Shown: one piece after another, positions 6,133 to 32,904 of the stretch
Layout: every line of letters begins with the position of its first letter
Numbering within the stretch: the first letter of the stretch is position 1
Source: Actinomycetota bacterium
GTDB lineage: Bacteria; Actinomycetota; Acidimicrobiia; Acidimicrobiales; Ilumatobacteraceae
Length of the DNA: 43,870 nt
Reading direction: 5' to 3'
Assembly (NCBI GenBank): GCA_046093625.1
Contig: JBJTFY010000160.1
Coordinates: 1 to 43,870 of the forward strand
Program-made: the position numbers and the translations under genes
Notes under the pieces: generated by a model
Databases searched by the model: none
Told to the model about the DNA's origin: nothing
What the model saw: only the letters and a program-made list of their open reading frames with translations

Positions 6133-6208
6133 TGGTGGTCGAGACCGGCGTCGATCCGGTGACCCTACGCTTTTCAGGCGTATGCTCTGCCGACTGAGCT
6201 ACTCGACC
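6133..6208 (-). tRNA. tRNA-Phe (GAA), CCA encoded
   Basis: The reverse complement reads GGTCGAGTAGCTCAGTCGG...ACGCCTGAAAAGCGT...GGATCGACGCCGGTCTCGACCACCA. Anticodon loop CUGAAAA. 76 nt. Confidence 0.93.
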
Positions 6209-6229
6209 TCGTGCGCCAAGGCGCACTTG

Positions 6230-6303
6230 CGGTCCCGACGGGACTCGAACCCGCGACCTCCGGCTTGACAGGCCGGCGTGAACTCCAACTTCACCACGAG
6301 ACC
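6230..6303 (-). tRNA. tRNA-Asp (GTC), CCA not encoded
   Basis: The reverse complement reads GGTCTCGTGGTGAAGTTGG...CCGGCCTGTCAAGCCGG...GGGTTCGAGTCCCGTCGGGACCG. Anticodon loop CUGUCAA. Confidence 0.92.
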
Positions 6304-6375
6304 AAACGTGTTGGCTATGTACTTCACTGTGCACTTACTCGAGCAACTCACTTGCCTCACCGGTGAACCGGTTCG

Positions 6376-6448
6376 CACCCCCAACGGGATTCGAACCCGT
6401 GCCGCCACCTTGAAAGGGTGGTGTCCTAGGCCACTAGACGATGGGGGC
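6376..6448 (-). tRNA. tRNA-Glu (TTC), CCA not encoded
   Basis: The reverse complement reads GCCCCCATCGTCTAGTGGCCTAGGACACCACCCTTTCAAGGTGG...ACGGGTTCGAATCCCGTTGGGGGTG. Anticodon loop CUUUCAA. The acceptor stem closes with an apparent G1.U72 pair. Confidence 0.9.
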
Positions 6449-6513: not shown

Positions 6514-7011
6514 TCAGCCCTGCATGAGGGCGGTGACCGCACTGTCGAGAAGCCAGGACAGGAAGTTGTACATGGCCATTTCGGGTCCCTCGTCGGGGTC
6601 GACCACCTCGTCGTCGCCCTCGTCGTCGTCGGTGACGTCGAGGATGGTGCCCAAGATCAGGCGCACGCTGTTGAGCGACACGACGAAGGCGTTGAGTTCG
6701 GCCGCCGTCATCGTGCGACGTTCGTCGTCGGCGAGCAGTTCGTCGATGCGCGCGATGGCCGCCAGCCGGCTGGCCACCAGTTCGTCGCGCATCAGGCGTT
6801 GGTACTCGGCCTCGGCCGATGCCTCGCGGCCACCGCCCTCGGTGTAGGCCGGGGGGAACAATCTCGCCATCTTCGGGTCGTCGACGGCACTCGACCCCAG
6901 CAGTTCGCGCACTTCCCCGACCAGTCGTCGGATGAAGTGTCGCTCGTCGTCGTCGAGGTTGACGGCGAACTCCCCGCGGTGGGTCTCGAAAGGCGGGCGC
7001 CGACGCACCAT
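6514..7011 (-). CDS. DUF2017-type protein (conserved ClpS neighbour in actinobacteria)
   Basis: 165-aa acidic protein with LFPPAY...EAEYQRLMRDELVASRLAAI. A 1-nt gap separates it from clpS. Family assignment is from memory of the clpS-DUF2017 synteny. Confidence 0.6.
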   Translation of the reverse strand: MVRRRPPFETHRGEFAVNLDDDERHFIRRLVGEVRELLGSSAVDDPKMARLFPPAYTEGGGREASAEAEYQRLMRDELVASRLAAIARIDELLADDERRTMTAAELNAFVVSLNSVRLILGTILDVTDDDEGDDEVVDPDEGPEMAMYNFLSWLLDSAVTALMQG

Positions 7012-7012
7012 G

Positions 7013-7351
7013 TCAGGACCCCGCCCCGTCGTTGTCGGTGCCGTCTTTCTGCATCGTCGCCCACAGTCCGTGCTCGTGGAGTCGAAAGACGTCCATCTCG
7101 GCTTTCTCGCGGTTGCCCGCCGACACCACCGCTTTGCCCTTCTCGTGCACGTCGAGCATGAGGGAGGTGGCCTTTTCGAGGCTGTACCCGAACAACTTCT
7201 GGAACACGAAGGTGACGTAACTCATCAGATTGATGGGGTCGTTCCACACCAAGACGATCCAGGGATTGTCGAGGGTGGTGGACTCGTCGGTCTCGGGACG
7301 AACGACCGTCGAGGGGGCCGCGGCGACGAGAGTCACGCCTTGAACGTCCAC
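7013..7351 (-). CDS. clpS: ATP-dependent Clp protease adaptor ClpS
   Basis: Core WIVLVWNDPINLMSYVTFVFQKLFGYS...A..LMLDVHEKGKAVV. The GTG at 7351 gives 112 aa. The ORF maximum (ATG 7447) would overlap the divergent ctaB start. Confidence 0.85.
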   Translation of the reverse strand: MDVQGVTLVAAAPSTVVRPETDESTTLDNPWIVLVWNDPINLMSYVTFVFQKLFGYSLEKATSLMLDVHEKGKAVVSAGNREKAEMDVFRLHEHGLWATMQKDGTDNDGAGS

Positions 7352-7404
7352 CCCGCCATTGTCACGGTTGGTGGTGCGTTTCGCACCCCCGTACGATCGG
7401 GGCG

Positions 7405-8355
7405 ATGTCCGTCGGATCCCGCCCTCTCGTGCCGTCGCGGCTGGCACCGGGTGGAGTGGCGGCGCACGGTCCGCGTCGCGAGCCGCGCAGTGTTCTGGGC
7501 GGCTACGTCGCGCTGATGAAGTTGCGGGTGGTCGAGCTGCTCTTGATCACGACCGTTCCCACCATGGTGTTGGCCGACCGGGGATGGCCGTCGTGGGGTC
7601 TGGTCGGGGTGACACTCCTCGGAGGTACCTTGGCCGCCGGCGGTGCCAACGCCATCAACATGGTGGTCGACCGCGACATCGACGCCCTGATGGAGCGCAC
7701 CAAGGGCCGCCCGCTGGTGACCGGTCTGATCCGACCCAAACAGGCCCTGATTTTTGCATTGTCCCTGCAAGTGGCCGCTTTTGTGGTTCTGTGGGTCGGG
7801 GCGAACCTGCTGTCGGCCGTCTTGGCGGCCTCGGCGACCTTGTTCTACGTGTTCGTGTACACGATCTGGTTGAAGCGCACCAGCCGACAGAACATCGTGA
7901 TCGGCGGGGCGGCCGGTGCGGTGCCGGTGCTGGTGGGATGGTCGGCGGTTCAGAACTCCCTCGCCTGGGAGCCGTTTGTCCTGTTCACAGCCATTTTTCT
8001 CTGGACCCCACCCCACTTTTGGGCGCTGGCGATTCGCCACAGCGATGACTACAAGGCGGCCGGAGTCCCGATGTTGCCGACCGTGGTGTCGATGCGTCAG
8101 ACCGTGACCCAGATGTTGGGGTACACGATCGCCCTGACCGGGGTGACCCTGGCCCTCGGTCCGGTGGCCGATTTGGGACCGATCTACATGATCGCGGCGG
8201 CCGTGCTGGGCCTGGGTTTCGTCGCCGCGACCGTCGATCTGGGGCGTCACCCCACCGTGGCCCGTTCGATGCGCGTCTTCGGCTTCTCGATCACCTACGT
8301 GACGTTGCTGTTCGCCGCCATGGCGGTGGACGTCGTCGTCGAACACGGAATCTGA
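7405..8355 (+). CDS. ctaB: Protoheme IX farnesyltransferase (heme O synthase)
   Basis: YVALMKLRVVELLLITT, NMVVDRDIDALMERTKGRPL and the polytopic UbiA-family layout. 316 aa. Confidence 0.92.
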   Translation: MSVGSRPLVPSRLAPGGVAAHGPRREPRSVLGGYVALMKLRVVELLLITTVPTMVLADRGWPSWGLVGVTLLGGTLAAGGANAINMVVDRDIDALMERTKGRPLVTGLIRPKQALIFALSLQVAAFVVLWVGANLLSAVLAASATLFYVFVYTIWLKRTSRQNIVIGGAAGAVPVLVGWSAVQNSLAWEPFVLFTAIFLWTPPHFWALAIRHSDDYKAAGVPMLPTVVSMRQTVTQMLGYTIALTGVTLALGPVADLGPIYMIAAAVLGLGFVAATVDLGRHPTVARSMRVFGFSITYVTLLFAAMAVDVVVEHGI

Positions 8356-8509
8356 TCACAATCGCACGACCTGTGACCCTCGCCGACGCCCTCGGGATTT
8401 CGGTCTGATCAGGGCAAAGTGGGTAATGTCGGAGGTTGGAAAACGTGTTGTTACCCCCGAGGAATCCGCAACGGGTCCCTCTCGTTGCGCGTGAAGCGAG
8501 CCATCTCGA

Positions 8510-10123
8510 ATGACAACAATTGATACGCACCACGCCGCCGGTGAAACGGCGGCGCCCCCCGCCGTCGCCGCGTGGATTTCGTCGGCCGACCACAAGCAGG
8601 TGGGCCGTCTCTTCGTGGGCACCGGCCTCGTCGGACTACTCGGTGGCCTGGTGTTGGCCGTGTTGGTGGCGTTCGAACGCATCGACGCCCAGGGTTACCA
8701 ACTGCTCGGCGTCGATTCGGCGCCTCAGGTGCTCTCGGCGGCCCGACTCCTGTTGACCTTCGGCGCCGTGGCCCCCTTGCTCCTCGGCATCGCCGTGGCG
8801 ATCGTGCCGTTGCAGCTCGGTGCGCGGTCGTTGGCCTTGCCGCGACTCGCCGCGGGTGGGTTCTGGATGTGGCTCACCGGCCTCGGTCTGGCGGTGTTCT
8901 CGATCATCGCCAATGGCGGACCCGGGGGCGGCTCGTCCGACATGGTCGACCTCTACCTTCTCGGAACGATCGTCATGTCGGTCGGCCTCATGATGGCCGC
9001 CGCGGCGGTGGCGACGTCGGTTCTCACCACCCGCGCCCCGGGCATGGGCTTGTTGAGGGCGCCGATGTTCTCCTGGTCGGCGCTCGTCGGTGCGGTGACG
9101 ATGTTGTTGGCGTTGCCGGTGTACGTCGGCTCGTCGATCTACCTGTACGTCGACCACAAGTACGCCCGGGCCGCTTTCGGTGGCAACGTCGGCGTGTCGA
9201 GTTGGGCCGGTTGGGCGATGTCGCAACCCTTCACCTACCTGTTGGCGATTCCGGCACTCGGCATGATCCTCGACATCGTCCCGGTGATGGGCCGCACGCG
9301 GTTGGCCCAGCGCAGCGCGGCCAACGTGGCCATCGGTGTCGTGTCGGTGGCGGTGCTGGCCACGGTGACCCAGACGATGGTGTCGTTGCCCTGGGAGGGC
9401 GAGAAGTTCCTCGACAATCTCGGGAACAAGATCGCCGACCTCCTGCCGTGGGGTCTGCTGACCGTCGTGCCGTTGCTCGGTGTGCTCGGTGTGCTCGGCA
9501 CGAGCGCGCTCACTCTCAAGAACGGCAAACCCCGGGTGGCGGCGCCGTTGGTGTTCGCCATGCACGGCTTGTTGATGATCGCCCTCGGTGTGGCCGCGCA
9601 CGTGTTGTGGTCGATCGACGATGCCGGTCTGCGGGGCTCGATCTTCGAGGCCGGCACGTACGTGGCCATCACGTTCGGCGTGGTGACGGTGTCATTCGGG
9701 GCACTGTGTTACTGGGGACCCAAGTTGTGGGGTCGGCGAATCCCCGACAAGGCTGCTCTTCCGTTGGCCCTGTTGGCGCTGCTGGCCTCGGCGCTCGGTT
9801 CGATCCCGTACATGATCGCCGGATTCGCCGATCAGCCCGCCGGTGCGCTCGACGGATTCTCGTACAGCGGTCCCCAAGACCTCTGGAACGTGCTCACGAC
9901 CGCGGGATTCGCGTTGATGTTGCTGACCACGTTGGCTTTCGTGGGCTTGGCGATCAAGAGTTTCATCGGCGGTGAGTCCGCTGGTGACGATCCGTGGGAC
10001 GGCCAGACGCTCGAGTGGGCCACGTCCTCGCCGCCTCCCGTCGACAACTTCTCCGATCTCGTGGTCGTCGGATCGGCCACCCCGCTCACCGACCTCAAGT
10101 CCAACACCGGGAAGGACGCCTGA
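8510..10123 (+). CDS. Heme-copper oxidase subunit I-like polytopic membrane protein lacking canonical heme/CuB ligands (predicted non-catalytic paralog)
   Basis: Shares CoxI landmarks with the adjacent ctaD: ADHKQVG, LPRLAAGGFWMW, TRAPGMGLLRAPMFSW, YWGPKLW and DPWDGQTLEWATSSPPPVDNF. It has only 6 His in total. By-eye alignment finds none at the six metal-ligand positions. Strong GC3 bias supports real coding. Confidence 0.8.
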   Translation: MTTIDTHHAAGETAAPPAVAAWISSADHKQVGRLFVGTGLVGLLGGLVLAVLVAFERIDAQGYQLLGVDSAPQVLSAARLLLTFGAVAPLLLGIAVAIVPLQLGARSLALPRLAAGGFWMWLTGLGLAVFSIIANGGPGGGSSDMVDLYLLGTIVMSVGLMMAAAAVATSVLTTRAPGMGLLRAPMFSWSALVGAVTMLLALPVYVGSSIYLYVDHKYARAAFGGNVGVSSWAGWAMSQPFTYLLAIPALGMILDIVPVMGRTRLAQRSAANVAIGVVSVAVLATVTQTMVSLPWEGEKFLDNLGNKIADLLPWGLLTVVPLLGVLGVLGTSALTLKNGKPRVAAPLVFAMHGLLMIALGVAAHVLWSIDDAGLRGSIFEAGTYVAITFGVVTVSFGALCYWGPKLWGRRIPDKAALPLALLALLASALGSIPYMIAGFADQPAGALDGFSYSGPQDLWNVLTTAGFALMLLTTLAFVGLAIKSFIGGESAGDDPWDGQTLEWATSSPPPVDNFSDLVVVGSATPLTDLKSNTGKDA

Positions 10124-10722
10124 TGCTCTCGTTGCCCTCGGCCCCCACCGCTCCGGCGCGCCGACAGGTGTTCGTCGCCACCGCACTGGCCGCTGCCGCG
10201 GGAACCACGTTGCTCGGTGGGATGCTCGCCACGTGGTTGCAGTTCCGCGGAGACGCACCGTTGCGCGAGTCGCCCAAGCGCGGGCTCATCGCCGACTGGA
10301 TGCCGGCCAAGGTCGTCGTTCCCGAGGTGGCCACGAACATGATGCTCATCGGTCTGTGCGTCGTCTGCGTGATGGCCCAGTGGGCGGTGTACTCGGCCAA
10401 GCGCAACGACCGCTCGCACGCCAGCCTGGCGTTCGGCATCACGATCCTGTTCGGTCTCATGGTCGTCAACGCCCAGGTGTACACCTGGACCCAGATGGGT
10501 GTCGCGGTGAACGACGGCGCGTTCCACACCATGTTCTACGCCGTCACCGGCACCATGATGCTGTTGCTGGTGTCCGGTCTCGTCTACACCGCGGTCGCGG
10601 CCTTCCGGTATCTCGGTGGTCGGTCCAAGGAGATCGAGATCGTGTCGGCGAGCGCCCTTTATTGGTACTTCCTCACGGCGGCGTTCACCGCGGTGTGGTT
10701 CGTCGTGTACGTGCAGAAGTGA
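10123..10722 (+). CDS. Cytochrome c oxidase subunit III-like membrane protein (diverged paralog)
   Basis: Aligns by eye to ctaE: AKRNDRSHASLAFGITILFGLMVVNAQVYTWT vs AQRKDDRNTNLWLTITALLGATFVGGQVYEFT, FYAVTG vs FYTLTG, and LYWYFLTAAFTAVWFVVYV vs LYWHFVDIVWIVIFTLVYL. TGATG start/stop overlap with the upstream gene. Confidence 0.72.
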   Translation: MLSLPSAPTAPARRQVFVATALAAAAGTTLLGGMLATWLQFRGDAPLRESPKRGLIADWMPAKVVVPEVATNMMLIGLCVVCVMAQWAVYSAKRNDRSHASLAFGITILFGLMVVNAQVYTWTQMGVAVNDGAFHTMFYAVTGTMMLLLVSGLVYTAVAAFRYLGGRSKEIEIVSASALYWYFLTAAFTAVWFVVYVQK

Positions 10723-10735
10723 CGAGGCAGAATCC

Positions 10736-11878
10736 ATGATCACAACCGGATCGAAACTCCTTTACGGGCTGGGAACCGCGACCGCGGTCGCGGCCATCGT
10801 GTGGTTCATCGCCAACGACGGCGGCGTCCTCGGCGTCGTGTCGCTGTCGTTCCTCGCCGTCGCATTGTTCTTCCTCGGTGCGGTGTCGTCGTACGTTCGC
10901 GACGGACACGTGCTCTCGACCGAGACCGCGGCGCACGCTTCCAGCAACGCGGCCCAGCGTGGTGTCGGCCGCAGTTGGTTCCCGTTCGGCACGGCGTTCT
11001 CGGCCGGCATGGTGGCGGTCGGGCTGGTGAGCTCGCCCGGCATCTTCAAGGTGGGCATCTGCTTGCTGTTCGCGATGCTCGGCGAGTGGCTGATCAAGAA
11101 CTGGAGCGACCGCGCGTCGTCGAACGCCGCCTACAACGAGAAGGTGCGCGCCTGGGTGGTGCACCCGCTCGAGATCCCGGTCGGTGGTGCGCTGTTGCTG
11201 ACGGTGATCGTGTTGTCGTTCTCGCGGGTCATGTTGTCGCTCTCGAGGGAGTCCGGTCCGATCGTGTTCGCGATCGCGGGCGCCCTCGTGCTGTTCGTCG
11301 GTTCGATGATCAGCGTCCGCCGCGGCGCGAGCCGACGCGTGGTTGGCGCGGTGGCCGGTGTCGTTCTGGTGGCACTCTCGGGAGCGGGCATCGCCCTCGC
11401 CCTCGACGGTGAGCGCCACGAACTCACGGTCGCAGCGGAGGAGGACCACTTCGCGCACCGTCCGTGCGGCGAGGAGGCCGAGGAGGCCGACGAGGACGCC
11501 GGGCGGGCCGTGTCGGCCAAGAGCAGCGTGGCCGCCACCGTGATCTTGCGCGACGGTCGTCTGTTCGCCGAGATGGACGGATGGTCGGGTGAACTCACGG
11601 CCATCACACTGCAGCGATCGAACCCCTCGAACATCTTGTTCATCAACGAGGACGACCACGAGCACCGCATGGTGGTCACGTACGGCATGGTCACCGAGGA
11701 TCTCGGTGGCGGGGTCAGCAAGGACACCGTGCTCGAGGCGTGCACGTCGTTGATCGGACAAGGTGGCACGCAAGCGGTGTCGGTCGTCATCCCCAAGCCC
11801 TCGTTCGCTAGTGAAGAGCCGTACTCGATCACCGTCCCCGGTGTGGAGGGTGCGTCGATCGAGATTCAGGTGCCGTGA
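10736..11878 (+). CDS. Polytopic membrane protein (~7 TM) with acidic linker and ~120-aa beta-rich, cupredoxin-like C-terminal domain
   Basis: Hydrophobic segments run through residue ~255, followed by the linker EEAEEADED. The C-terminal pattern ITLQRSNPSNILFINEDDHEHRMVV...YSITVPGVEGASIEIQV resembles a plastocyanin/Cupredoxin_1 sandwich without the C..H..M triad. A GAGG RBS lies 9 nt upstream. Confidence 0.6.
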   Translation: MITTGSKLLYGLGTATAVAAIVWFIANDGGVLGVVSLSFLAVALFFLGAVSSYVRDGHVLSTETAAHASSNAAQRGVGRSWFPFGTAFSAGMVAVGLVSSPGIFKVGICLLFAMLGEWLIKNWSDRASSNAAYNEKVRAWVVHPLEIPVGGALLLTVIVLSFSRVMLSLSRESGPIVFAIAGALVLFVGSMISVRRGASRRVVGAVAGVVLVALSGAGIALALDGERHELTVAAEEDHFAHRPCGEEAEEADEDAGRAVSAKSSVAATVILRDGRLFAEMDGWSGELTAITLQRSNPSNILFINEDDHEHRMVVTYGMVTEDLGGGVSKDTVLEACTSLIGQGGTQAVSVVIPKPSFASEEPYSITVPGVEGASIEIQVP

Positions 11879-11956
11879 GTCACCCCCGCCCCCATAGAGA
11901 GACGATCTGAACCCATGAGTACCGTGAGCAACGTGAACGAGCGAGCAGGAGAGACG

Positions 11957-13177
11957 ATGAAGTCTTCGCGTCGTTGGTCGAAGGTCGCGACGTCGACCCT
12001 CGCCGTTTCCGCCCTGATGTTCCTGGCCGGTTGCGCCAAGGACGCACCTCAGGACACCTGGCAGCCGGCCGGTCCGAACGCGGAGAAGATCGACAATCTG
12101 CAACGGCCGATCTTCTACATCGCCGGCGTGGTCGGATTGATCGTTTTCGCCGCCGTGGGCTGGGCGGTGTTCCGCTATCGCGATCGTGGTCAGGCGATGC
12201 CGGAGCAGTCGCACGGCAAGCCGGCCCTCGAGATCACCCTCACCGTCATCCCGGTGTTGATCCTCGTCGGTGTCGCGGTGCCCACCGTGGGCACCATCTT
12301 CGATCTGGCCAAGACCGACGACACCGAGATGACCATCAACGTCACCGGTCAGCAGTGGTGGTGGGAGTACGACTACCCGGCCGTCGGCACGAACGCCTCG
12401 GAGTTCGGAATCGCCGAGCCCATCGTGACCTCGGGTCAGTTGGTGATCCCGGAGGACACCAAGATCCTGTTGCGCGTCACGAGTCGCGACGTCATCCACT
12501 CGTACTGGATCCCCAAGTTGAACGGCAAGAAGGACGGTGTGCCCGGTCGCGTGCATCTCTTGCGCCTCGAGGGTTCGCAACCGGGCATCTACGCCGGTCA
12601 ATGCACCGAGTTCTGCGGTCTCTCCCACGCGTACATGCGCATGGAGACGGTCGTGCTCTCCAAGGCCGACTACGCCGCCTGGGTCGCGAACCAGCTCGAG
12701 GCCTATTCGTCGCCGTCCGCCGACAACGCCTTGGCCCTCGAGGGCGAGAATTTGTTCTTGCAGCAGTGCGCGCGCTGTCACCAGGTGAACGGGCTGCAGA
12801 ATTCCGACGGCACCCCGAACGTGGCCGCCCCCGACCAATACCTGGTGTCCGGTGCGGCGCCGAACCTGACCAACCTCATGACCCGCAACACCTTCGCGGG
12901 TGCGGCCTGGGATCTGTTGACCCCCGAGTGCCGCGACGACGTGTGGAACGCCTCCGCGGAGGAGTTCGGCGCGAAGTACCTGGCCGGCGTCAGCGAGGAC
13001 TGTCTCAACCAGAAGGATCTTCGCGAGTGGCTGCGCAACGCCCCCGCCAAGAAGCCCATGTACGCCGATCCGACCAAGTTGGCCGAGACCGGCGGTAAGT
13101 ACCGCGGCATGCCCGCCCTCGGCCTCACCGAGGACCAGATCAACGCCCTCGTCGCCTACCTGCTCGAGCGGAAGTAA
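11957..13177 (+). CDS. ctaC: Cytochrome c oxidase subunit II with fused C-terminal cytochrome c domain (caa3 type)
   Basis: Lipobox MFLAGC and two TM helices. CuA site HSYWIP...CTEFCGLSHAYM. Heme c motif CARCH with the distal YRGMPAL. A GGAGAG RBS precedes the ATG at 11957; the ORF maximum is 11915. Confidence 0.92.
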   Translation: MKSSRRWSKVATSTLAVSALMFLAGCAKDAPQDTWQPAGPNAEKIDNLQRPIFYIAGVVGLIVFAAVGWAVFRYRDRGQAMPEQSHGKPALEITLTVIPVLILVGVAVPTVGTIFDLAKTDDTEMTINVTGQQWWWEYDYPAVGTNASEFGIAEPIVTSGQLVIPEDTKILLRVTSRDVIHSYWIPKLNGKKDGVPGRVHLLRLEGSQPGIYAGQCTEFCGLSHAYMRMETVVLSKADYAAWVANQLEAYSSPSADNALALEGENLFLQQCARCHQVNGLQNSDGTPNVAAPDQYLVSGAAPNLTNLMTRNTFAGAAWDLLTPECRDDVWNASAEEFGAKYLAGVSEDCLNQKDLREWLRNAPAKKPMYADPTKLAETGGKYRGMPALGLTEDQINALVAYLLERK

Positions 13178-13192
13178 AGGGAGAACACTCGA

Positions 13193-15208
13193 ATGGCCAT
13201 CATCGAACGTCCCTCCACGGAAGTCGCCGTCGCCGGCGGTGCCACGATCGGCGTGAAGCCGAGCGAGGCCCTCGGCGTGTTCAAGCGTCCGGCCGCGAGC
13301 ACCTCGTGGCGCGATTGGCTCGTCACGGTCGACCACAAGAAGCTCGGCATCATGTACGGGGTCGCCGCGTTCTTCTTCGTCATCGTCGGCGGCTTGGAAG
13401 CCGTCTTGATCCGTCTGCAGTTGATCGCCCCGAACGGCAAGGTGCTCAACGCCGACCAGTACAACCAGATGTTCACGATGCACGCCACCACGATGGTGTT
13501 CCTGTTCGTGATGCCGATGGCGGCGGCGTTCGCCAACTACTTCGTACCCCTCCAGATCGGTGCGCGCGACGTGGCCTTCCCCCGCATCAACGCGTTCGGA
13601 TTCTGGTGCTTCCTGTTCGGCGGCATCTTCCTGAACACCTCGTGGTTCCTGGGTGGGGCGGCCGACGGCGGTTGGTTCATGTACGCCCCGAACTCGAGCA
13701 CGCTCTTCTCGCCCAGCCACGGCATCGACTTCTGGGCGATGGGCCTGCAGATCACCGGTATCGCCTCGCTGACCGGTGCGATCAACCTGATCGTGACGAT
13801 CCTCAACATGCGCGCTCCGGGCATGAAGTTGATGCGGATGCCCATCTTCACCTGGATGGTGTTGGTCGTGCAGTTCCTGCTGCTCTTCGCCATTCCGGTC
13901 ATCACGGTGGCGCTGTTCCTGCTCACCTTCCAGCGCTCGTTCGACGCCACCTTCTTCGACGTGGCCTCCGGTGCCGACCCGCTCTTGTGGCAGCACCTGT
14001 TTTGGATCTTCGGTCACCCCGAGGTGTACATCCTGATCCTGCCGTCGTTCGGCATCGTGTCGGAGATCCTGCCGGTCTTCTCCAAGAAGCCGTTGTTCGG
14101 TTACCCGATCGTCGCGATGTCGGGTGCCGCCATCGGTTTCGTCGGCTGGGGCGTGTGGGCGCACCACATGTTCGCCTCGGGCCTCGGTCCGGTGTCGGTG
14201 ACGGTCTTCTCGATGGCGACCATGGCGATCGCGGTGCCCACCGGCGTGAAGATCGTCAACTGGGTCATGACCATGTGGGGCGGCAAACTGCGCTTCACGG
14301 TGCCCATGCTCTTCTCGATCGCCCTCGTCGTGCAGTTCACCATCGGTGGTCTGTCGGGGGTCACCCACGCCGTCGCGCCGAGCGACACCCAGCAGACCGA
14401 CACCTACTACATCGTGGCGCACTTCCACTACGTGTTGTTCGGTGGGGCGATCTTCGGGTTGTTCGCCGGGTTCTACTACTGGTGGCCGAAGATGTTCCGC
14501 AAGCAATTGAGCGAATCGATCGGGCGTTGGAACTTCTGGCTGATGGTGGTGGGCATGAACATGACGTTCGGGCCGATGCACATGCTCGGTCTGCAGGGCC
14601 AACCGCGTCGTATGCAGGTCTGGACCGAGGCCCGCGCCGGAGACGGCTTCTTCAACCTCGGTTTCTGGAACCGCATCGCGTCCACCGGGTCGCTCATCCT
14701 CTCGGTCGGTGTCCTGTTGTTCATCATCAACGTGGTGTACACCCACAAGTCGAAGAAGGTCGCCATCGCGCCCCTCGATCCGTGGGACGCCCGCACCCAC
14801 GAGTGGATGACCGACAGTCCCCCGAAGGAGCACAACTTCGACTCCATTCCGACGATCGACAACCTCGACGAGTTCTTCCACCGCAAGTACGCCCAGGACG
14901 CCGAGACGCACGAGATCAAGCAGGTGGCCACGGCCGAGGAGGTGTTGGCCGAGATGAACGCACATCCGGACGAGCACATCCACATGCCGTCGCGTTCCTA
15001 CTGGCCGATTCTGTTGGCGCTGGCCCTCCCGATCATCGGTTACGGCCTGATCTACAACCGAGTCATCCTCGCCGTCGGTGCGGCCATGGTGGTGTTGACC
15101 ATGTTCGGCTGGGCGATGGAACCCTCCACGTCACCCGATGACGATTTCGACCCGCCCGCCCCCGGCGACGGTGGCGGCCACACGAAGGAGTTGGCGCCCC
15201 TTGGCTGA
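13193..15208 (+). CDS. ctaD: Cytochrome c oxidase subunit I (canonical ligands present) with ~120-aa C-terminal two-helix extension
   Basis: VDHKKLG, TMHATTMVF, GARDVAFPRINAFGFW, FGHPEVY, WAHHMF, PTGVKIVNW, VAHFHYV and PPKEHNF are all present. 671 aa, versus ~540 for a typical core. Confidence 0.95.
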   Translation: MAIIERPSTEVAVAGGATIGVKPSEALGVFKRPAASTSWRDWLVTVDHKKLGIMYGVAAFFFVIVGGLEAVLIRLQLIAPNGKVLNADQYNQMFTMHATTMVFLFVMPMAAAFANYFVPLQIGARDVAFPRINAFGFWCFLFGGIFLNTSWFLGGAADGGWFMYAPNSSTLFSPSHGIDFWAMGLQITGIASLTGAINLIVTILNMRAPGMKLMRMPIFTWMVLVVQFLLLFAIPVITVALFLLTFQRSFDATFFDVASGADPLLWQHLFWIFGHPEVYILILPSFGIVSEILPVFSKKPLFGYPIVAMSGAAIGFVGWGVWAHHMFASGLGPVSVTVFSMATMAIAVPTGVKIVNWVMTMWGGKLRFTVPMLFSIALVVQFTIGGLSGVTHAVAPSDTQQTDTYYIVAHFHYVLFGGAIFGLFAGFYYWWPKMFRKQLSESIGRWNFWLMVVGMNMTFGPMHMLGLQGQPRRMQVWTEARAGDGFFNLGFWNRIASTGSLILSVGVLLFIINVVYTHKSKKVAIAPLDPWDARTHEWMTDSPPKEHNFDSIPTIDNLDEFFHRKYAQDAETHEIKQVATAEEVLAEMNAHPDEHIHMPSRSYWPILLALALPIIGYGLIYNRVILAVGAAMVVLTMFGWAMEPSTSPDDDFDPPAPGDGGGHTKELAPLG

Positions 15209-15815
15209 CACCGCTATCGCCCACGGCCATGACGCCGGTCATGGTGCCCATGTGACGACCACCGGCTTGTCCAACAACAAGTTGGGAATGTGGATGTTCC
15301 TCGGTTCCGAGTGCCTCCTGTTCGGCGGTCTCATCTCGACCTACATGCTCTACAAGGGTCGAGTGAACTCGGGCCCCCAGCCCGACCAGATCTACGACAT
15401 CCCGTTCACCTCGGTGAGCTCTTTCGTCCTGCTCATGAGTTCGCTCACGATGGTGTTGGCGGTGTCGGCCGCCCAGCGCAAGGACGACCGCAACACGAAC
15501 CTCTGGCTCACGATCACCGCGCTCCTCGGCGCCACCTTCGTCGGCGGTCAGGTGTACGAGTTCACGGCCTTCTACCGCGAGGGTCTGGGCTTCACGACCA
15601 GCCTCTTCGGGTCGAGTTTCTACACCCTCACGGGTTTCCACGGTGTGCACGTGTCGGTCGGCATCATCATGTTGATGGCGTTGGTGGGCATGATCAGTCG
15701 AAACCGGATTCCGGGGAGCAAGGCCGAGTCCGTCGAGTTGATCGGCCTCTACTGGCACTTCGTCGACATCGTCTGGATCGTCATTTTCACCCTCGTCTAC
15801 CTGATCCCGTCCTGA
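15201..15815 (+). CDS. ctaE: Cytochrome c oxidase subunit III (short 5-TM form)
   Basis: KLGMWMFLGSECLLFGGL, FYTLTGFHGVHV and LYWHFVDIVWIVIF. Start is uncertain: the TTG at 15201 overlaps the ctaD stop by 8 nt, GTG 15252 is possible, and ATG 15138 would overlap ctaD by 71 nt. Confidence 0.88.
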   Translation: MADTAIAHGHDAGHGAHVTTTGLSNNKLGMWMFLGSECLLFGGLISTYMLYKGRVNSGPQPDQIYDIPFTSVSSFVLLMSSLTMVLAVSAAQRKDDRNTNLWLTITALLGATFVGGQVYEFTAFYREGLGFTTSLFGSSFYTLTGFHGVHVSVGIIMLMALVGMISRNRIPGSKAESVELIGLYWHFVDIVWIVIFTLVYLIPS

Positions 15816-15825
15816 GGAGCCAACG

Positions 15826-16161
15826 ATGAGCACCGCCACCGATCACAGCGCCGAGCACGTCGCCGAACACGCCGACGAGCACCACGGAGCGAGCGACAAG
15901 CAGTACGTCATCATCGCCCTCATCCTGGCCGCGCTCACGGCGATCGAGGTGTCGACCTACTACGTCGACTTCGGTCCGTTGTTCATGCCGACGCTCTTCG
16001 TGTTGATGACCGTGAAGTTCGTGGTGGTGGTGTCGTACTTCATGCACCTGAAGTTCGACAACAAGCTGTTCAGCTACCTCTTCTACTCGGGCTTGATCTT
16101 GGCGCTCGCGGTGTACATCGGGGCGCTGTCCACCTTCAAGTTCTTCCTTCAGAAGGGCTGA
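15826..16161 (+). CDS. ctaF: Cytochrome c oxidase subunit IV, Bacillus/caa3 type (COX4_pro-like)
   Basis: 111 aa with 3 TM and YVIIALILAALTAIEV...VKFVVVVSYFMHLKFD. GAGGAG RBS. Confidence 0.8.
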   Translation: MSTATDHSAEHVAEHADEHHGASDKQYVIIALILAALTAIEVSTYYVDFGPLFMPTLFVLMTVKFVVVVSYFMHLKFDNKLFSYLFYSGLILALAVYIGALSTFKFFLQKG

Positions 16162-16164
16162 CCG

Positions 16165-17052
16165 ATGCCGGCCATGGTCGACCCGTGGCGTTTCCAAGCC
16201 CATGTCGAGGTGTGGCTGCTCGTCGCCTTCCTGGTGGCGTCCTACGTGTACGTCGTGCGCGTCCTCGGGCCGCGGGCGGTGGGCCCCGGGGAGTCGGTCG
16301 TCACCCGGCGTCAGTTGGCCTGTTTCGTCGGCGGAATCCTGGTGTTGTGGATCGGATCCGACTGGCCGGTACACGACATCGCCGAGGAGTACCTCTACTC
16401 CGTGCACATGGTCCAGCACATGGCCCTCACGTACTTCATGCCACCGCTCGTCGTGTTGGCCACGCCCGAGTGGTTCGTGCGCACCTTGGTGGGACGGGGC
16501 CGGGCTCGGCGGGCGTTGAACTTCATGGCCCACCCGGTGCGGGCCGCCTTCCTCTTCAACGTGATCGTGATGGTGAGTCACGTGCCCGCCGTCGTGAATC
16601 GCTCGGTGTCGAACGCGCCACTGCACTATTCGGTGCACGTGTTGCTGGTGAGCACTTCGATCCTGATGTGGTTACCGGTGTGCGGACCGCTGAAGGAGTA
16701 CCACATCTCCTCGATGGGCAAGATGATCTATCTCTTCCTCAACAGCGTGGTGGCGACGGTGCCCGCGGGTTGGCTGACATTCGCCGAGGGCACGGTGTAC
16801 AAGCACTACGGTACCCCGATCCGGGTGTGGGGGATCTCGGTCAGCGACGATCAGCAGATGGCCGGCGCGATCATGAAACTGGGTGGCTCCATTTTCCTGT
16901 GGACCATCATCGGTGTGATGTTCGTTCGGAACTTCGTCGTCACGTTCCGGCGGGAGAACGAGGCGGCCTACGTGCGCAAGCCCCTGACGATGGCCGACGT
17001 GGAGAAGGCGTTCGAAGAGAGCGAACCGATCCGCGAGTCCCGCTCGAACTAG
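16165..17052 (+). CDS. ctaG: Cytochrome c oxidase assembly factor CtaG (Caa3_CtaG family)
   Basis: Polytopic protein with WPVHDIAEEYLYSVHMVQHMALTYFMPPLVVLATP. Positioned directly after ctaF, as in Bacillus ctaCDEFG. Confidence 0.82.
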   Translation: MPAMVDPWRFQAHVEVWLLVAFLVASYVYVVRVLGPRAVGPGESVVTRRQLACFVGGILVLWIGSDWPVHDIAEEYLYSVHMVQHMALTYFMPPLVVLATPEWFVRTLVGRGRARRALNFMAHPVRAAFLFNVIVMVSHVPAVVNRSVSNAPLHYSVHVLLVSTSILMWLPVCGPLKEYHISSMGKMIYLFLNSVVATVPAGWLTFAEGTVYKHYGTPIRVWGISVSDDQQMAGAIMKLGGSIFLWTIIGVMFVRNFVVTFRRENEAAYVRKPLTMADVEKAFEESEPIRESRSN

Positions 17053-17073
17053 CAATCCGGATGTCGGAGAACG

Positions 17074-17808
17074 TCACTCCCAGCGGAATGTGAGAGCGGT
17101 GACGGCTGGCGCGACCACGGCCCAGATGCCCAACACGATCCACGACGTTCCCGGCCGCTCGGCTCCGCCCACCAACGCGTCGCGCATGACGTCGGCCAGA
17201 GCGCCACTCGGCAGGCACTCGGCGACGGCGGCGAGCGGCCCGGGCAACTCGTCGAACGGGATCACCATTCCGCCCAGCAGCAACAGCAACAGGTACAACC
17301 CGTTCTGGGCGGCCAGGTTCACTTCGGCCCGCAGGCGCCCGGCGATGAGCAATCCGACACCACCGAAGGCGATCGTTCCCGTCACGACGGCCCCGATGGC
17401 GAGCAACCAGTTCGCCGAGCCGGCATCCCAACCCAACCCGAGCGCCACCGGAACCAGCACGACCAGTTGGATCATCTGCACCACGATGACCGCGGTGATC
17501 TTGGCCGCCAGCCAACGCGGTCGACCGAGGGGAGTGGCTCCCAATCGCTTCAGCACCTTGTAGCCGCGTTCGAACCCGGTGGCGATACCGAGGCTCACCA
17601 TGGCGCTGCTCATGACGGCCAGGGCCAACACCCCGGGCGTGAGGAAGTCGACAGGCTCGCGTACGTCGCCGGTGGGAAGGACGTCGACCGTCGAGAAGAA
17701 CACCAGGAGCATCACCGGGATGATGAGCGTGAGCAGCAGTTGCTCGCCGTTGCGGAGCACGACGGTGAGTTCGGCCCGCAATTGGGAACGGAAGGGACCG
17801 GCACTCAT
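17074..17808 (-). CDS. ABC-2 type transporter permease
   Basis: A 244-aa protein with ~6 TM and MSAGPFRSQLRAELTVVLRNGEQLLLTLIIPVMLLVFF. ATGA overlap with the upstream ATPase gene. Confidence 0.8.
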   Translation of the reverse strand: MSAGPFRSQLRAELTVVLRNGEQLLLTLIIPVMLLVFFSTVDVLPTGDVREPVDFLTPGVLALAVMSSAMVSLGIATGFERGYKVLKRLGATPLGRPRWLAAKITAVIVVQMIQLVVLVPVALGLGWDAGSANWLLAIGAVVTGTIAFGGVGLLIAGRLRAEVNLAAQNGLYLLLLLLGGMVIPFDELPGPLAAVAECLPSGALADVMRDALVGGAERPGTSWIVLGIWAVVAPAVTALTFRWE

Positions 17809-21376: not shown

Positions 21377-22210
21377 TCAGACGTCCCCCGGGTCTCGGCG
21401 GGTCCGGGCGAAGATGATCGCCGTCATCACGATGAGCGATAGGACCACGGCGAGCAGGCCACGGTTCTGGTCGATCGATCGCGCGACCCGTTCCTGCCAG
21501 TCGAGCACCTTGCCCGTCACATCGTCGTCGTAGTTCTCGCGGATGTCGTTGAGCCAGTACCACGCGAGATAGACGCCGCTCAGCATCATGACCACCGCCG
21601 AAGCCCGCTCGACGTGACGCATCCCGTTGCGCAACACCCGCAGGAACCCGCTGCGCGCGAGAGCGAGCGTGACGGTGAGCCCGATGACCAGCAACGACAT
21701 GGCGATTCCGTAGAGGGCGATGGCCACCACCCCGACCACGAATCCCTCCGTGGTGACGGTTCCGAGAACGGTGGCGGTGAACGGTCCGAGCGTGCATCCG
21801 ATCGACGCGATGGCGTAGGCGACACCGAAGACGAACATGCTCGCGGTGGTGCGGTCGCGTCGGCCGACGTCGAGTTTCGGAGTGGTGAAGGGCATTCGCC
21901 AACCGGTCAGCATCGCCACGCCCATGGCGAAGAGAGCGACCCCGATGACGAGTGCGACGTATTTCGCGTTCTGGTTGAAGTAATCGGTGAAGATCCGGGT
22001 GACGGCACCCACCACGACGAACACGCTCATGAACCCGGCCGACAGCGCGCCCCCGACGATCAGCGCTCGACGCACGCTGGCCCGTTGCGAACCGGGGCGG
22101 CCGTCGATGCCGAGGAAGTAGACGAGGTACGTGGGAAGGAGTACGAACCCGCAGGGGTTGACGGCGGCCAACAATCCGCTGCCGAAGCTCAACCACAGCC
22201 GGTCGTTCAC
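21377..22210 (-). CDS. ccdA: Cytochrome c biogenesis thiol-reductant transporter CcdA (DsbD family)
   Basis: FGSGLLAAVNPCGFVLLPTYL plus a second Cys (ASIGCTLGPF) and ~6-8 TM. GTGA overlap with the upstream thioredoxin-like gene. The 513-aa ORF in the track is an N-terminal artefact. Confidence 0.88.
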   Translation of the reverse strand: MNDRLWLSFGSGLLAAVNPCGFVLLPTYLVYFLGIDGRPGSQRASVRRALIVGGALSAGFMSVFVVVGAVTRIFTDYFNQNAKYVALVIGVALFAMGVAMLTGWRMPFTTPKLDVGRRDRTTASMFVFGVAYAIASIGCTLGPFTATVLGTVTTEGFVVGVVAIALYGIAMSLLVIGLTVTLALARSGFLRVLRNGMRHVERASAVVMMLSGVYLAWYWLNDIRENYDDDVTGKVLDWQERVARSIDQNRGLLAVVLSLIVMTAIIFARTRRDPGDV

Positions 22211-22791
22211 CGTGTTCCCCCGACCAATTCGTCGAGCGCCGCGGTGAGTTCGGCAGCCGACACCTCCCCGGCGATCTGTCTCACGACCGTTCCGTCGGGG
22301 GCGACGAACAGCGTGGTGGGAAACGTCGCCACGCCGTTGACCGTGACCAACCGCGCGTCGGGATCGCGCAGGAGTTCGTAGGTGACCCCCACGTCGTCGG
22401 CGAACGATCGGGTGATCGTCTCGCTGTCCTGGGTGTTGACGCCCACGAACCGCACCGTGTCGCCGTACTGGAGAAAGGCCGCCTGCAAGGCCGGCATCTC
22501 GCGTTTGCAAGGCTGACAATTGGAGAACCAGAAGTTGACCAGCAGGGGTCGCCCGTCGAGCAAGGAGCCGGTGTCGACCTCGTTGCCGTCGAGATCGAAC
22601 ACCGTGGCGACACCCAGTCGTTCGCCGGTCAGTGGAGCGTTGGTGGGAATGCCCGGTTCCTGGTACTCGCCCGGCTCGTCGAGCACGACGTCGGTGTCGG
22701 TCCTCGCGTCGTCGGCTATCGCGAACACTGCGACGACGGCCGCCACCCCGGCGACCAAACCGGCGAGCAGGGGAACGATGCGTCGCGACAC
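22207..22791 (-). CDS. TlpA/ResA-family membrane-anchored thiol:disulfide oxidoreductase
   Basis: N-terminal anchor helix and a thioredoxin fold with WFSNCQPCKREMP (CxxC). GTG start. Confidence 0.85.
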   Translation of the reverse strand: MSRRIVPLLAGLVAGVAAVVAVFAIADDARTDTDVVLDEPGEYQEPGIPTNAPLTGERLGVATVFDLDGNEVDTGSLLDGRPLLVNFWFSNCQPCKREMPALQAAFLQYGDTVRFVGVNTQDSETITRSFADDVGVTYELLRDPDARLVTVNGVATFPTTLFVAPDGTVVRQIAGEVSAAELTAALDELVGGTR

Positions 22792-22844
22792 ACCGCGAGG
22801 CTAACTGCGGGACCACGGGGCCGTCCGACCGTCGACCTGGGATG

Positions 22845-22875
22845 CCCGGCCGCAGTGGGGGGAACTGCGGCCGGG
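22845..22875. terminator. Perfect 12-bp stem hairpin downstream of the whiB7-like gene
   Basis: CCCGGCCGCAGT (22845-22856), a 7-nt loop GGGGGGA, then ACTGCGGCCGGG (22864-22875). No U-tract. Confidence 0.45.
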
Positions 22876-22942
22876 ACCTCCCGGTGCAGTCGCGGGTTCG
22901 ACTGAGCGTTGCCCGCAACCGAGATCTGGACGGTGATCGGCG

Positions 22943-27084: not shown

Positions 27085-27110
27085 CCGAGCCTTCTTTTGG
27101 TCTCCACCAT

Positions 27111-27128
27111 GATACCCTATGGGGTATC
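27111..27128. promoter_or_regulatory. CsoR/CstR-family operator palindrome in the divergent intergenic region
   Basis: GATACCC TATG GGGTATC is a perfect inverted repeat. It lies 27 nt from the cstB-like ATG and 24 nt from the regulator ATG. Confidence 0.7.
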
Positions 27129-27151
27129 CGAAAGTCGACCGAAAGGGCCCC

Positions 27152-27421
27152 ATGGAGATTTCCGAGGACGTCAAAGACGACCTGACGCGTCGACTCCGAC
27201 GCATCGAGGGTCAGGTTCGCGGCATCCAGAACATGATCGCTGAGGATCGCGAGTGTCGGGACATCGTCACCCAGATCGCCGCGGCGACCAAGGCCCTCGA
27301 GCAGGTCGGTTTTCGCATGTTGGCCGCCGGCCTCACGTCGTGTCTGGCCGATCCCGACAAAGCGGCCGCCGAGGGCTACCCGATCGACGTCGTCGAGAAG
27401 ATGTTCATGAAGCTCGCCTGA
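27152..27421 (+). CDS. cstR: CsoR/DUF156-family repressor, two-Cys (CstR-like persulfide sensor)
   Basis: LTRRLRRIEGQVRGIQNMI, RECRDIVTQI and GLTSCL. The residue four positions before the second Cys is Gly rather than the CsoR copper-ligand His. The ATG at 27152 is chosen because ATG 27119 sits inside the operator. Confidence 0.7.
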   Translation: MEISEDVKDDLTRRLRRIEGQVRGIQNMIAEDRECRDIVTQIAAATKALEQVGFRMLAAGLTSCLADPDKAAAEGYPIDVVEKMFMKLA

Positions 27422-32889: not shown

Positions 32890-32904
32890 GCGACCCGACT
32901 CTAG

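Follow-up and report, generated by a model that had tools for sequence, protein, structure and literature searches.

The 43,870-nucleotide (nt) stretch analysed here, hereafter the window, is contig JBJTFY010000160.1 (positions 1 to 43,870, forward strand) of assembly GCA_046093625.1, from an Actinomycetota bacterium of the Ilumatobacteraceae. It carries a caa3-type cytochrome c oxidase operon, and in this operon lies a gene, psi-I, encoding a homologue of the catalytic subunit I of haem-copper oxidases from which the residues that hold the cofactors have been replaced. psi-I is followed by a gene for a degenerate subunit III paralogue, psi-III, and by a gene for a membrane protein, X. Collectively, the data presented below indicated that psi-I is very probably a cofactor-less pseudo-subunit, maintained by selection within a conserved module.

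Residues 31-466 of psi-I matched the Pfam COX1 model (PF00115) with 105.9 bits (E = 3e-30), against a cut-off of 34.8 bits, and BLASTP gave a full-length alignment to the canonical CtaD, whose gene lies 3 kb downstream (25% identity, E = 1e-39). The AlphaFold2 model, computed from a 27-sequence family alignment, contained twelve long helices, with a mean predicted local distance difference test score (pLDDT) of 81 and a predicted template modelling score (pTM) of 0.85. Foldseek returned A-family subunit I structures as its top matches (9gy6_F, 7qhm_D, 1ar1_A, 1occ_A and others), with template modelling (TM) scores of 0.76-0.81. The retention of fold landmarks, proposed in a first-pass annotation made from the letters of the window, was borne out by the alignments and by this confident prediction. 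All best structural and sequence matches of psi-I came from the A family and not from the cbb3 type; the A-family CtaD model TIGR02891 gave 185 bits (cut-off 670.75), and the CcoN model TIGR00780 gave no match at E ≤ 0.01.

The first-pass annotation had described psi-I as homologous to subunit I but with substitutions at all six metal-ligand histidines and at the D- and K-channel residues, and BLASTP, the family alignment, a profile alignment and structure prediction all agreed with this description. The family alignment, made with MAFFT, comprised psi-I, the canonical CtaD and 119 homologues taken from databases (50-99% identity); twenty functional positions were scored in it, for which R. 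sphaeroides numbers serve as labels. The canonical residue was present in 0/119 homologues at each of the metal-ligand positions H102, H284, H333, H334, H419 and H421. The same result was obtained for E286, for the D-channel residues D132, N121, N139 and N207 and an S201-like site, for the K-channel residues K362 and T359, and for the haem-propionate arginine pair R481/R482. The Mg-site aspartate is gone from psi-I and kept in 4/119 homologues, and the loop bearing the W172 equivalent is deleted. Positions that form the D- and K-channels are now occupied by S, V, A, T, F or L. Of the positions scored, only two were often retained, the tryptophan before the CuB histidine (90/119 homologues) and the cross-link tyrosine position (Y243; 78/119). 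A separate profile alignment to Mycobacterium smegmatis CtaD (6hwh; profile E = 5.6e-64) produced the same substitutions.

The motif pairs on which the annotation had relied were present in both proteins: TMHATTMVF in CtaD and SAARLLLTF in psi-I for the haem a ligand, FGHPEVY and MSQPFTY for a CuB ligand and the glutamate, VAHFHYV and AGTYVAI for the haem a3 and haem a ligands, GARDVAFPR and GARSLALPR for the D-channel entry, and PTGVKIVNW and PLLGVLGVLG for the K-channel. Its reading of the CuB pair (WAHHMF) was correct as to the loss of both histidines but not secure as to register, BLASTP placing WEGEKF opposite this motif and MAFFT either G297/E298 or Q288/T289. The ambiguity is immaterial because psi-I has no histidine at residues 217-351. 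Six histidines were counted in the whole protein, as had been stated, at positions 7, 8, 28, 216, 352 and 364.

No substitute ligand set emerged. The annotation had raised the histidines of the AMHG and AAHV motifs as potential axial haem ligands; H352 and H364 were found in 19/119 and 61/119 close relatives, respectively, and both fell outside the five commonest residues of their columns among 116 cluster representatives. When columns with at least 50% His, Cys, Met or Tyr were sought across the family, H28 alone was general, H216, H352 and H364 being lineage-specific. H28 belongs to a DHK motif, is the sole family-wide histidine, occurs in canonical enzymes too and is not a metal ligand. An alternative conserved metal-ligand constellation was rejected, as no set of His, Cys, Met or Tyr residues is kept across the family.

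It could still be argued that psi-I binds haem, copper or another redox group through Tyr, Gln, Met or Glu side chains and has kept some electron-transfer or sensing function. Q239 stands at the CuB histidine position in 117/119 close relatives, next to the frequent Y243, a tyrosine occupies the haem a histidine position in 21/119, and the bis-histidine pair and type-1 copper loop of basal relatives, described below, imply that a partial redox function existed in the family. Across the broad family, however, Q239 is kept in 54/116 and Y243 in 42/116 representatives; the propionate arginine pair, the Mg-site aspartate and the W172 loop are lost, and the cupredoxin domain of the partner protein X is without ligands or deleted. 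We therefore regard a cryptic cofactor as very unlikely. The alignments indicate that psi-I is a subunit I homologue without a site for haem a, haem a3 or CuB and without a D- or K-channel; it is predicted to be incapable of O2 reduction and is presumably metal-free.

Compared with the hallmarks of the haem-copper superfamily, psi-I has the subunit I fold (PF00115) and 0/6 of the invariant histidines of a catalytic subunit. The D-channel, K-channel and cross-linked tyrosine that characterise the A family are represented by the tyrosine position alone, the ligands of the cbb3 subunit I (CcoN) are absent, and no histidine occurs at any of the six ligand positions of the nitric oxide reductases (NOR), whether cNOR, qNOR or newer families. 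Judged by these residues, psi-I lacks every catalytic hallmark of A-, B- and C-family oxidases and of NOR families. It has the attributes of a pseudoenzyme, namely homology, lost catalytic residues, selection (ratio of non-synonymous to synonymous substitution rates, dN/dS, of 0.096-0.14 at short distance) and wide occurrence.

A profile search covered 1.84 billion cluster representatives (50% identity), from which the best 150 matches, each of at least 255 bits, were considered. At least 146 of these 150 were of the psi-I type, and among 117 full-length representatives all but two lacked most or all ligands. Where they could be traced, psi-I-type clusters all came from Acidimicrobiia. The closest protein matches were an ENA metagenome protein (99% identity) and proteins of Ilumatobacteraceae metagenome-assembled genomes (MAGs; 88%), which points to a freshwater-type Ilumatobacteraceae bacterium as the source of the window. 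A COX1 domain is on record for 120/120 closest database matches. Genome-scan matches in Chloroflexota, Verrucomicrobiota, Planctomycetota, Acidobacteriota and other phyla aligned far better with canonical CtaD and are ordinary oxidases.

The gene order ctaB-psiI-psiIII-X-ctaC-ctaD-ctaE was found in essentially every psi-I locus, about 30 of which were examined, from 88% down to 31% identity. ctaB lay upstream of psi-I in every locus with sequence on that side; in one exception, locus L004, ctaD and ctaE directly followed X with no ctaC between. These loci are labelled Acidimicrobiia, Ilumatobacteraceae, Acidimicrobiales, Microthrixaceae or, unspecifically, 'Actinomycetota'. Locus L009 (CAZELU010000044.1), titled 'uncultured Bifidobacterium sp.', bears an Acidimicrobiia ctaB-psiI-psiIII-X-ctaC operon with 71% protein identity to the window, and its title almost certainly reflects a mislabelled or mis-binned MAG.

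psi-I is under purifying selection. Relative to locus L010, the psi-I orthologue of which is 88% identical, dN/dS was 0.096 for psi-I, 0.095 for psi-III and 0.060 for X, and the neighbouring canonical genes gave 0.081 (ctaC), 0.042 (ctaD) and 0.175 (ctaB). One might see in the module a decaying relic, a duplicated oxidase gene set without function and on its way to loss, since psi-I diverges faster than the canonical CtaD (in one genome pair, 58% and 81% identity, respectively) and ligands and domains have been lost progressively. We give this reading almost no credence. Reading frames were intact in all loci examined, dN/dS at short distances was about 0.06-0.16, similar to ctaC and ctaB, 88 positions were invariant in the 27-sequence alignment, and synteny was kept to 31% identity. 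A decaying pseudogene is excluded because dN/dS is low and the family extends over at least about 146 clusters at 50% identity; intact frames, conserved synteny and low dN/dS effectively refute the relic reading.

The two partner proteins showed the same kind of degeneration. The ATG of psi-III overlaps the TGA stop of psi-I by 1 nt, sharing the A (TGATG). psi-III matched Pfam PF00510 (COX3) with 36.3 bits (E = 7.5e-9; cut-off 23.8) and was 26% identical to the CtaE of the window. The conserved polar set of subunit III, comprising the membrane glutamate and the HGxHV and WHFVD motifs, was compared between the two proteins, and the invariants E141, H168, H171, H207 and D210 (numbering of the window CtaE) are all replaced in psi-III.

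X begins 13 nt after psi-III. Its helices 1-4 resemble CtaF, the actinobacterial oxidase subunit IV, and are followed by three further helices, an acidic linker and a beta-rich C-terminal domain. The CtaF model PF12270 was matched by 13/23 members of the X family at E ≤ 0.1 (best 1.9e-5), the window X itself giving a weak match (E = 0.7). With a broad X-family profile, M. tuberculosis CtaF (8hcr_H) was detected at 3.8e-4 over X residues 7-115, weaker CtaF matches were obtained to 9wcx_m (5e-3) and 7q21_F (0.022), and auracyanin (6kol) was detected at 2.2e-4 over residues 259-335. The structure model of X was poor overall (pLDDT 56), with values of 75-85 in the C-terminal domain, for which Foldseek returned amicyanin and auracyanin at about 2e-4. 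Because of the 6kol, 8hcr_H, PF12270 and Foldseek matches, we describe X as a fusion of a CtaF-like membrane part with a cupredoxin domain. In the window X the cupredoxin fold is supported and the ligand set of type-1 copper, His...Cys-x(n)-His-x(n)-Met, is absent. C244 and C336 are conserved and may form a disulfide. The most conserved motif of X, W..WSDRAS.D..N..R...P.E.P, lies in a loop predicted from the helix pattern to be cytoplasmic. X was also considered as a divergent subunit II, which was rejected: BLASTP against CtaC found nothing, and the cupredoxin domain resembles auracyanin and amicyanin, not CuA domains. A further homologue search with the broad X profile matched unannotated Acidimicrobiia proteins only.

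Relatives of the module retain part of the redox machinery. In a rough neighbour-joining tree, psi-type proteins formed one clade beside the canonical enzymes. The earliest branches that share the synteny of the module (L025, L005/P0364 and P0378) keep the low-spin-haem histidines H102/H421, a pair kept in 16/117 representatives, and their binuclear centre and channels are wholly gone. The basal modules are located at 8001-11338 of L005 and 5896-9269 of L025. Their X proteins have an intact type-1 copper loop with an upstream histidine, FHCDVHPTMQG in L025 and FKCDFHPTMTG in L005, and this intact loop (H...C-x2-H-x2-M) was found in exactly these two loci, in which psi-I retains H102/H421. In the lineage of the window both haem histidines and the X copper ligands are gone, and in L004, L006, L026, L036 and L057 the cupredoxin domain of X is deleted entirely. 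From these residues, L005 and L025 may still encode a redox-active membrane module with haem and blue copper, derived from an oxidase. Since the basal relatives keep the haem histidines and the type-1 copper loop, the family records a stepwise loss of redox centres, and in view of this graded series the module appears to descend from a duplicated oxidase in which O2 chemistry was lost first.

Two near-canonical proteins at the base of the tree, P0390 and P0380, were rejected as the root of this series, as their gene contexts differ; the series starts with L025/L005. P0390 (L088 3182-4843) keeps all six histidines and has lost D132 and the arginine pair. P0394 (L089 1946-4721) is without H284, H334 and K362 and has a gene for a 397-aa UbiA-family protein directly downstream. 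Both may represent independent oxidase degeneration or change of function.

The psi-I profile scored canonical CtaDs of Chloroflexota, Planctomycetota and Acidobacteriota with 244-270 bits, M. smegmatis CtaD, the best match among PDB sequences, with 220 bits, and the neighbouring CtaD lowest, with 193 bits. psi-I is thus not a recent copy of the neighbouring CtaD. Its interpretation as a fossil of the actinobacterial aa3-type CtaD was not supported either, as CtaDs of other phyla score higher.

Conservation within psi-I was assessed over 116 divergent representatives, taking positions conserved in at least 75%. The first conserved group consists of prolines and glycines within helices. The second consists of loops shared with COX1, namely DHK.G ahead of helix I, P.Q.GA...FPR in the loop from helix II to III, R.PGM...P.F.W in the IV-V loop, W.PK in the X-XI loop and, at the C-terminus, DPW..T.EW..SPP..NF; we take these loops to lie on the cytoplasmic side, as in COX1. 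A C-terminal tail, S..PL.D, forms the third and is specific to the psi-I family. Helices II-V were the best conserved and helices VII-IX, around the former binuclear centre and K-channel, the worst. Among the 116 representatives, there was no intramembrane polar residue conserved family-wide. In the narrow Ilumatobacteraceae subfamily R33, E56, R57, R79, R268 and E380 are invariant; across the broad family only R33 and E/D56 stay frequent (85-90%). R79 and E380 showed no significant co-variation among the 116 representatives, E56/R57 alone co-varying, and a salt bridge between R79 and E380 that plugs the haem a pocket was accordingly not supported.

These charged residues, in or near helices, would suit a repurposed conduit, in which the haem-less bundle of 12 transmembrane helices (TM) and psi-III serve as a channel or transporter for ions, protons or small molecules. 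Removal of two haems could leave an internal space, and such a conduit might act, for example, as a proton leak or as an entry path serving the neighbouring oxidase. The D- and K-channels have both been replaced by hydrophobic residues, however, and this possibility is further weakened by the lack of a family-wide intramembrane polar residue, by the absence of R79/E380 co-variation and by the poor conservation of the helices that surround the former active site. A conduit is in our view improbable, as are the particular transport roles just named. The pattern of conservation suggests a role in fold and protein-protein interface rather than a catalytic or ion-conducting site.

The genes of the operon are listed in Table 1. 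ctaB ends 154 nt upstream of psi-I. Further downstream, the intergenic distances are 36 nt (X-ctaC), 15 nt (ctaC-ctaD), -71 nt (ctaD-ctaE), 10 nt (ctaE-ctaF) and 3 nt (ctaF-ctaG). No terminator-like site was found in any intergenic gap of the module and caa3 genes, and a promoter and terminator scan of 7000-17400 gave nothing beyond chance. The gene overlap, the short gaps and the absence of terminators from them support the predicted co-transcription of psi-I, psi-III and X with the caa3 genes. The canonical oxidase genes are themselves intact: ctaC scored 186 bits with TIGR02866 and ctaD 679 bits with TIGR02891, both above the cut-off, and the ligand string of CtaD is HDHEYHHKHHRR. Residues 586-645 of CtaD form a C-terminal two-helix extension that matches PF12270 (actinobacterial CtaF, 3e-6), and this CtaF-like extension coexists in the operon with the separate PF03626-type subunit IV.

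Table 1. Genes of the module and of the surrounding caa3 oxidase operon, with window coordinates.
Gene	Coordinates	Strand	Product	Remarks
ctaB	7405-8355	+	haem O synthase, UbiA family	Pfam PF01040 8.9e-64; start uncertain (orthologues 287-298 aa)
psi-I	8510-10123	+	subunit I paralogue, 537 aa, 12 TM	ATG start; Pfam COX1
psi-III	10123-10722	+	subunit III paralogue, 199 aa, 5 TM	Pfam PF00510; overlap with psi-I
X	10736-11878	+	380 aa, ~7 TM	CtaF-like N-terminus, acidic linker, C-terminal cupredoxin fold
ctaC	11915-13177	+	subunit II with fused cytochrome c domain (caa3 type)	Pfam COX2_TM, COX2, Cytochrom_C
ctaD	13193-15208	+	canonical subunit I, all ligands	Pfam COX1 4.5e-152; PF12270
ctaE	15138-15815	+	canonical subunit III	Pfam COX3 4.9e-20; start uncertain, open reading frame overlaps ctaD end
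ctaF	15826-16161	+	prokaryotic subunit IV	Pfam COX4_pro 3e-12
ctaG	16165-17052	+	caa3-type assembly factor, operon end	Pfam Caa3_CtaG 5.6e-43

Beyond the first-pass annotation, the analysis adds the three-gene module, its fixed place in the operon, purifying selection and the partial ligand sets of basal relatives. We tentatively propose the following scheme, to which we assign somewhat less than even confidence: the module would form a cofactor-free 'shadow oxidase' that acts as a structural partner of the caa3 oxidase or of its supercomplex. An A-family oxidase would have been duplicated in early Acidimicrobiia, giving rise to the module. The binuclear centre and the channels would have been lost first, and at an intermediate stage the module may have lasted as a unit with haem and blue copper; low-spin haem and blue copper would have been lost later, with the module still retained. 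psi-I, the translationally coupled psi-III and X would be transcribed in one unit with the caa3 genes, so that the shadow oxidase is made in fixed proportion with caa3, and it would dock onto the active oxidase or its supercomplex as a structural scaffold. Operon structure is what suggests that psi-I, psi-III and X form a complex and that this complex docks to the active enzyme.

Several points weigh against this proposal. We infer, rather than observe, the physical association with caa3 and the association of psi-I, psi-III and X with one another. A pure scaffold has no obvious need of a module of 12, 5 and 7 TM, and the adjacency of ctaB, joined in L005 by ctaA and a TlpA-like redoxin gene, fits a role in assembly equally well. 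Codon bias, expressed as the effective number of codons (ENC) and the GC content of third codon positions (GC3), is intermediate, and does not separate the module from structural or from assembly genes. The narrow subfamily also has invariant charged residues (R33, E56, R57, R79, R268 and E380). Finally, a missing histidine is not strict proof of a missing haem or metal.

The role in assembly deserves separate consideration. psi-I, psi-III and X could mimic the oxidase core as an assembly platform or chaperone that acts transiently in biogenesis and is absent from the mature enzyme. The module is flanked on one side by ctaB, for haem O synthase, and on the other by the structural genes, and the last gene of the operon, ctaG, encodes an assembly factor; in L005, ctaA is divergent upstream of ctaB and a TlpA/redoxin-like gene lies between X and ctaC. 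The loops of psi-I shared with COX1, presumably cytoplasmic, are conserved, and the top motif of X is in a predicted cytoplasmic loop. The periplasmic domain of X, a possible contact for CuA, is nevertheless dispensable in several lineages, and translational coupling together with tight packing against structural genes suggests stoichiometric production. Moreover, no homologue of subunit I is known among oxidase assembly factors, and the title and abstract of the review by Hederstedt (2022; PMC9145763) mention no such case. We consider an assembly platform unlikely, though worth keeping in mind, and the same reserve applies to the tasks that it might perform, such as holding CtaC/CtaE, organising haem delivery by CtaB/CtaA or presenting CuA to thiol-redox or copper chaperones.

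The preferred reading, a structural partner of caa3, can be compared with known systems. psi-I shares with A-family subunit I (CtaD/CoxA; M. smegmatis 6hwh/9gy6, C. glutamicum 7qhm, P. denitrificans 1ar1) the 12-TM fold, the loop motifs, the C-terminal DPW..T.EW..SPP..NF and an adjacent gene for a subunit III homologue. It differs from these enzymes in the absence of the six histidines, E286, the D- and K-channels, the Mg-site aspartate, the arginine pair and the W172 loop. The first four helices of X resemble CtaF (PF12270), and its C-terminal domain resembles auracyanin, a membrane-anchored type-1 copper protein of Chloroflexi, from which the X of the window lineage differs by having no copper ligands and that of other lineages by deletion of the domain. 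No description of a fusion of CtaF with an auracyanin-like domain and three extra helices was found in the literature searched.

Retention of an enzyme homologue without cofactor or active site as a structural part has precedents in respiratory complexes. The molybdopterin-like domains of ActB in alternative complex III (ACIII) and of NuoG/Nqo3 in complex I are cofactor-less homologues, and the core proteins of mitochondrial bc1 are inactive, peptidase-derived homologues. These belong to other protein families, and their incorporation is shown by structures, whereas that of psi-I is deduced from operon structure. In photosystem II, the 'rogue' D1 paralogues (sentinel D1 and ChlF) are core paralogues that lack the metal-cluster ligands and have a different role. 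Unlike psi-I, which has its own degenerate partners, they still bind pigments and replace the canonical subunit in the same complex.

Retention of the cupredoxin fold after loss of the CuA ligands is described in PMC11214002 for subunit II of bo3 (CyoA) and gNOR. X has undergone a comparable loss of copper ligands in its C-terminal domain. In bo3 and gNOR, however, the catalytic subunit is active and the electron donor has changed, whereas degeneration here extends to the catalytic subunit itself, to subunit III and to the cupredoxin. According to PMC11214002, the new NOR families retain haem and metal ligands and lack the active-site tyrosine alone. We found no report of a ligand-less subunit I paralogue or of a psi-I/psi-III/X module in the full-text literature searched, which did not cover subscription journals.

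Other features of the window lie outside the operon. The minus-strand segments 6133-6448 and 6514-7447 hold a tRNA-Phe/Asp/Glu cluster and, next to it, genes for DUF2017 and ClpS proteins that are divergent from ctaB; several related loci (L001-L005) share the ClpS-DUF2017-ctaB arrangement. The minus-strand gene at 21377-22918, some 4 kb downstream of the operon, gave a weak DsbD_TM/CcdA-like match (5e-6, just under the Pfam cut-off), of the thiol-transfer type known from cytochrome c biogenesis. The minus-strand gene at 25375-27204 encodes a 609-aa protein with a metallo-beta-lactamase and three rhodanese domains, a fusion of the persulfide-dioxygenase/sulfurtransferase type. The genes at 29752-31305 and 31351-33384, also on the minus strand, encode large alpha/beta-hydrolases with C-terminal TAP-like domains (Abhydrolase_1 + Abhydrolase_4) and appear to be a tandem duplication.

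The identity of psi-I affects how genomes are read. There is no dedicated NCBIfam model for it, and NCBI records name family members 'cbb3-type cytochrome c oxidase subunit I' or 'hypothetical protein'. JGI names are 'heme/copper-type cytochrome/quinol oxidase subunit 1' and, once, 'cytochrome o ubiquinol oxidase subunit 1'. Misnamed records include P0003, P0015, P0080 and P0087. To judge by the comparisons above, the cbb3-type name is wrong for psi-I. Because psi-I has no match to the CcoN model TIGR00780, such records risk an over-counting of oxidases in metabolic predictions from MAGs, and reconstructions of Acidimicrobiia MAGs may list a second or high-affinity oxidase where none can exist.

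The haem-copper superfamily is taken to be defined by six invariant histidines in subunit I, and here a large, selected clade keeps the fold without any of them. This shows that selection can maintain the oxidase scaffold for a use other than catalysis. The series of graded losses, from canonical enzymes through a bis-histidine and blue-copper stage to proteins with neither and finally to deletion of the cupredoxin domain, constitutes a natural experiment on the dismantling of an oxidase core, and it also informs on what holds the fold together without haems. It is possible, with a likelihood that we place a little short of even, that Acidimicrobiia have turned a whole oxidase core (subunit I, subunit III and a CtaF-cupredoxin fusion) into a hitherto undescribed, metal-free derivative, a selected, non-redox membrane machine bound to caa3, of which L005 and L025 record the order of loss. 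If true, the haem-copper oxidase superfamily would gain its first pseudoenzyme branch; the finding also predicts an unusual architecture of the oxidase or its supercomplex in a major class of freshwater and soil actinobacteria.

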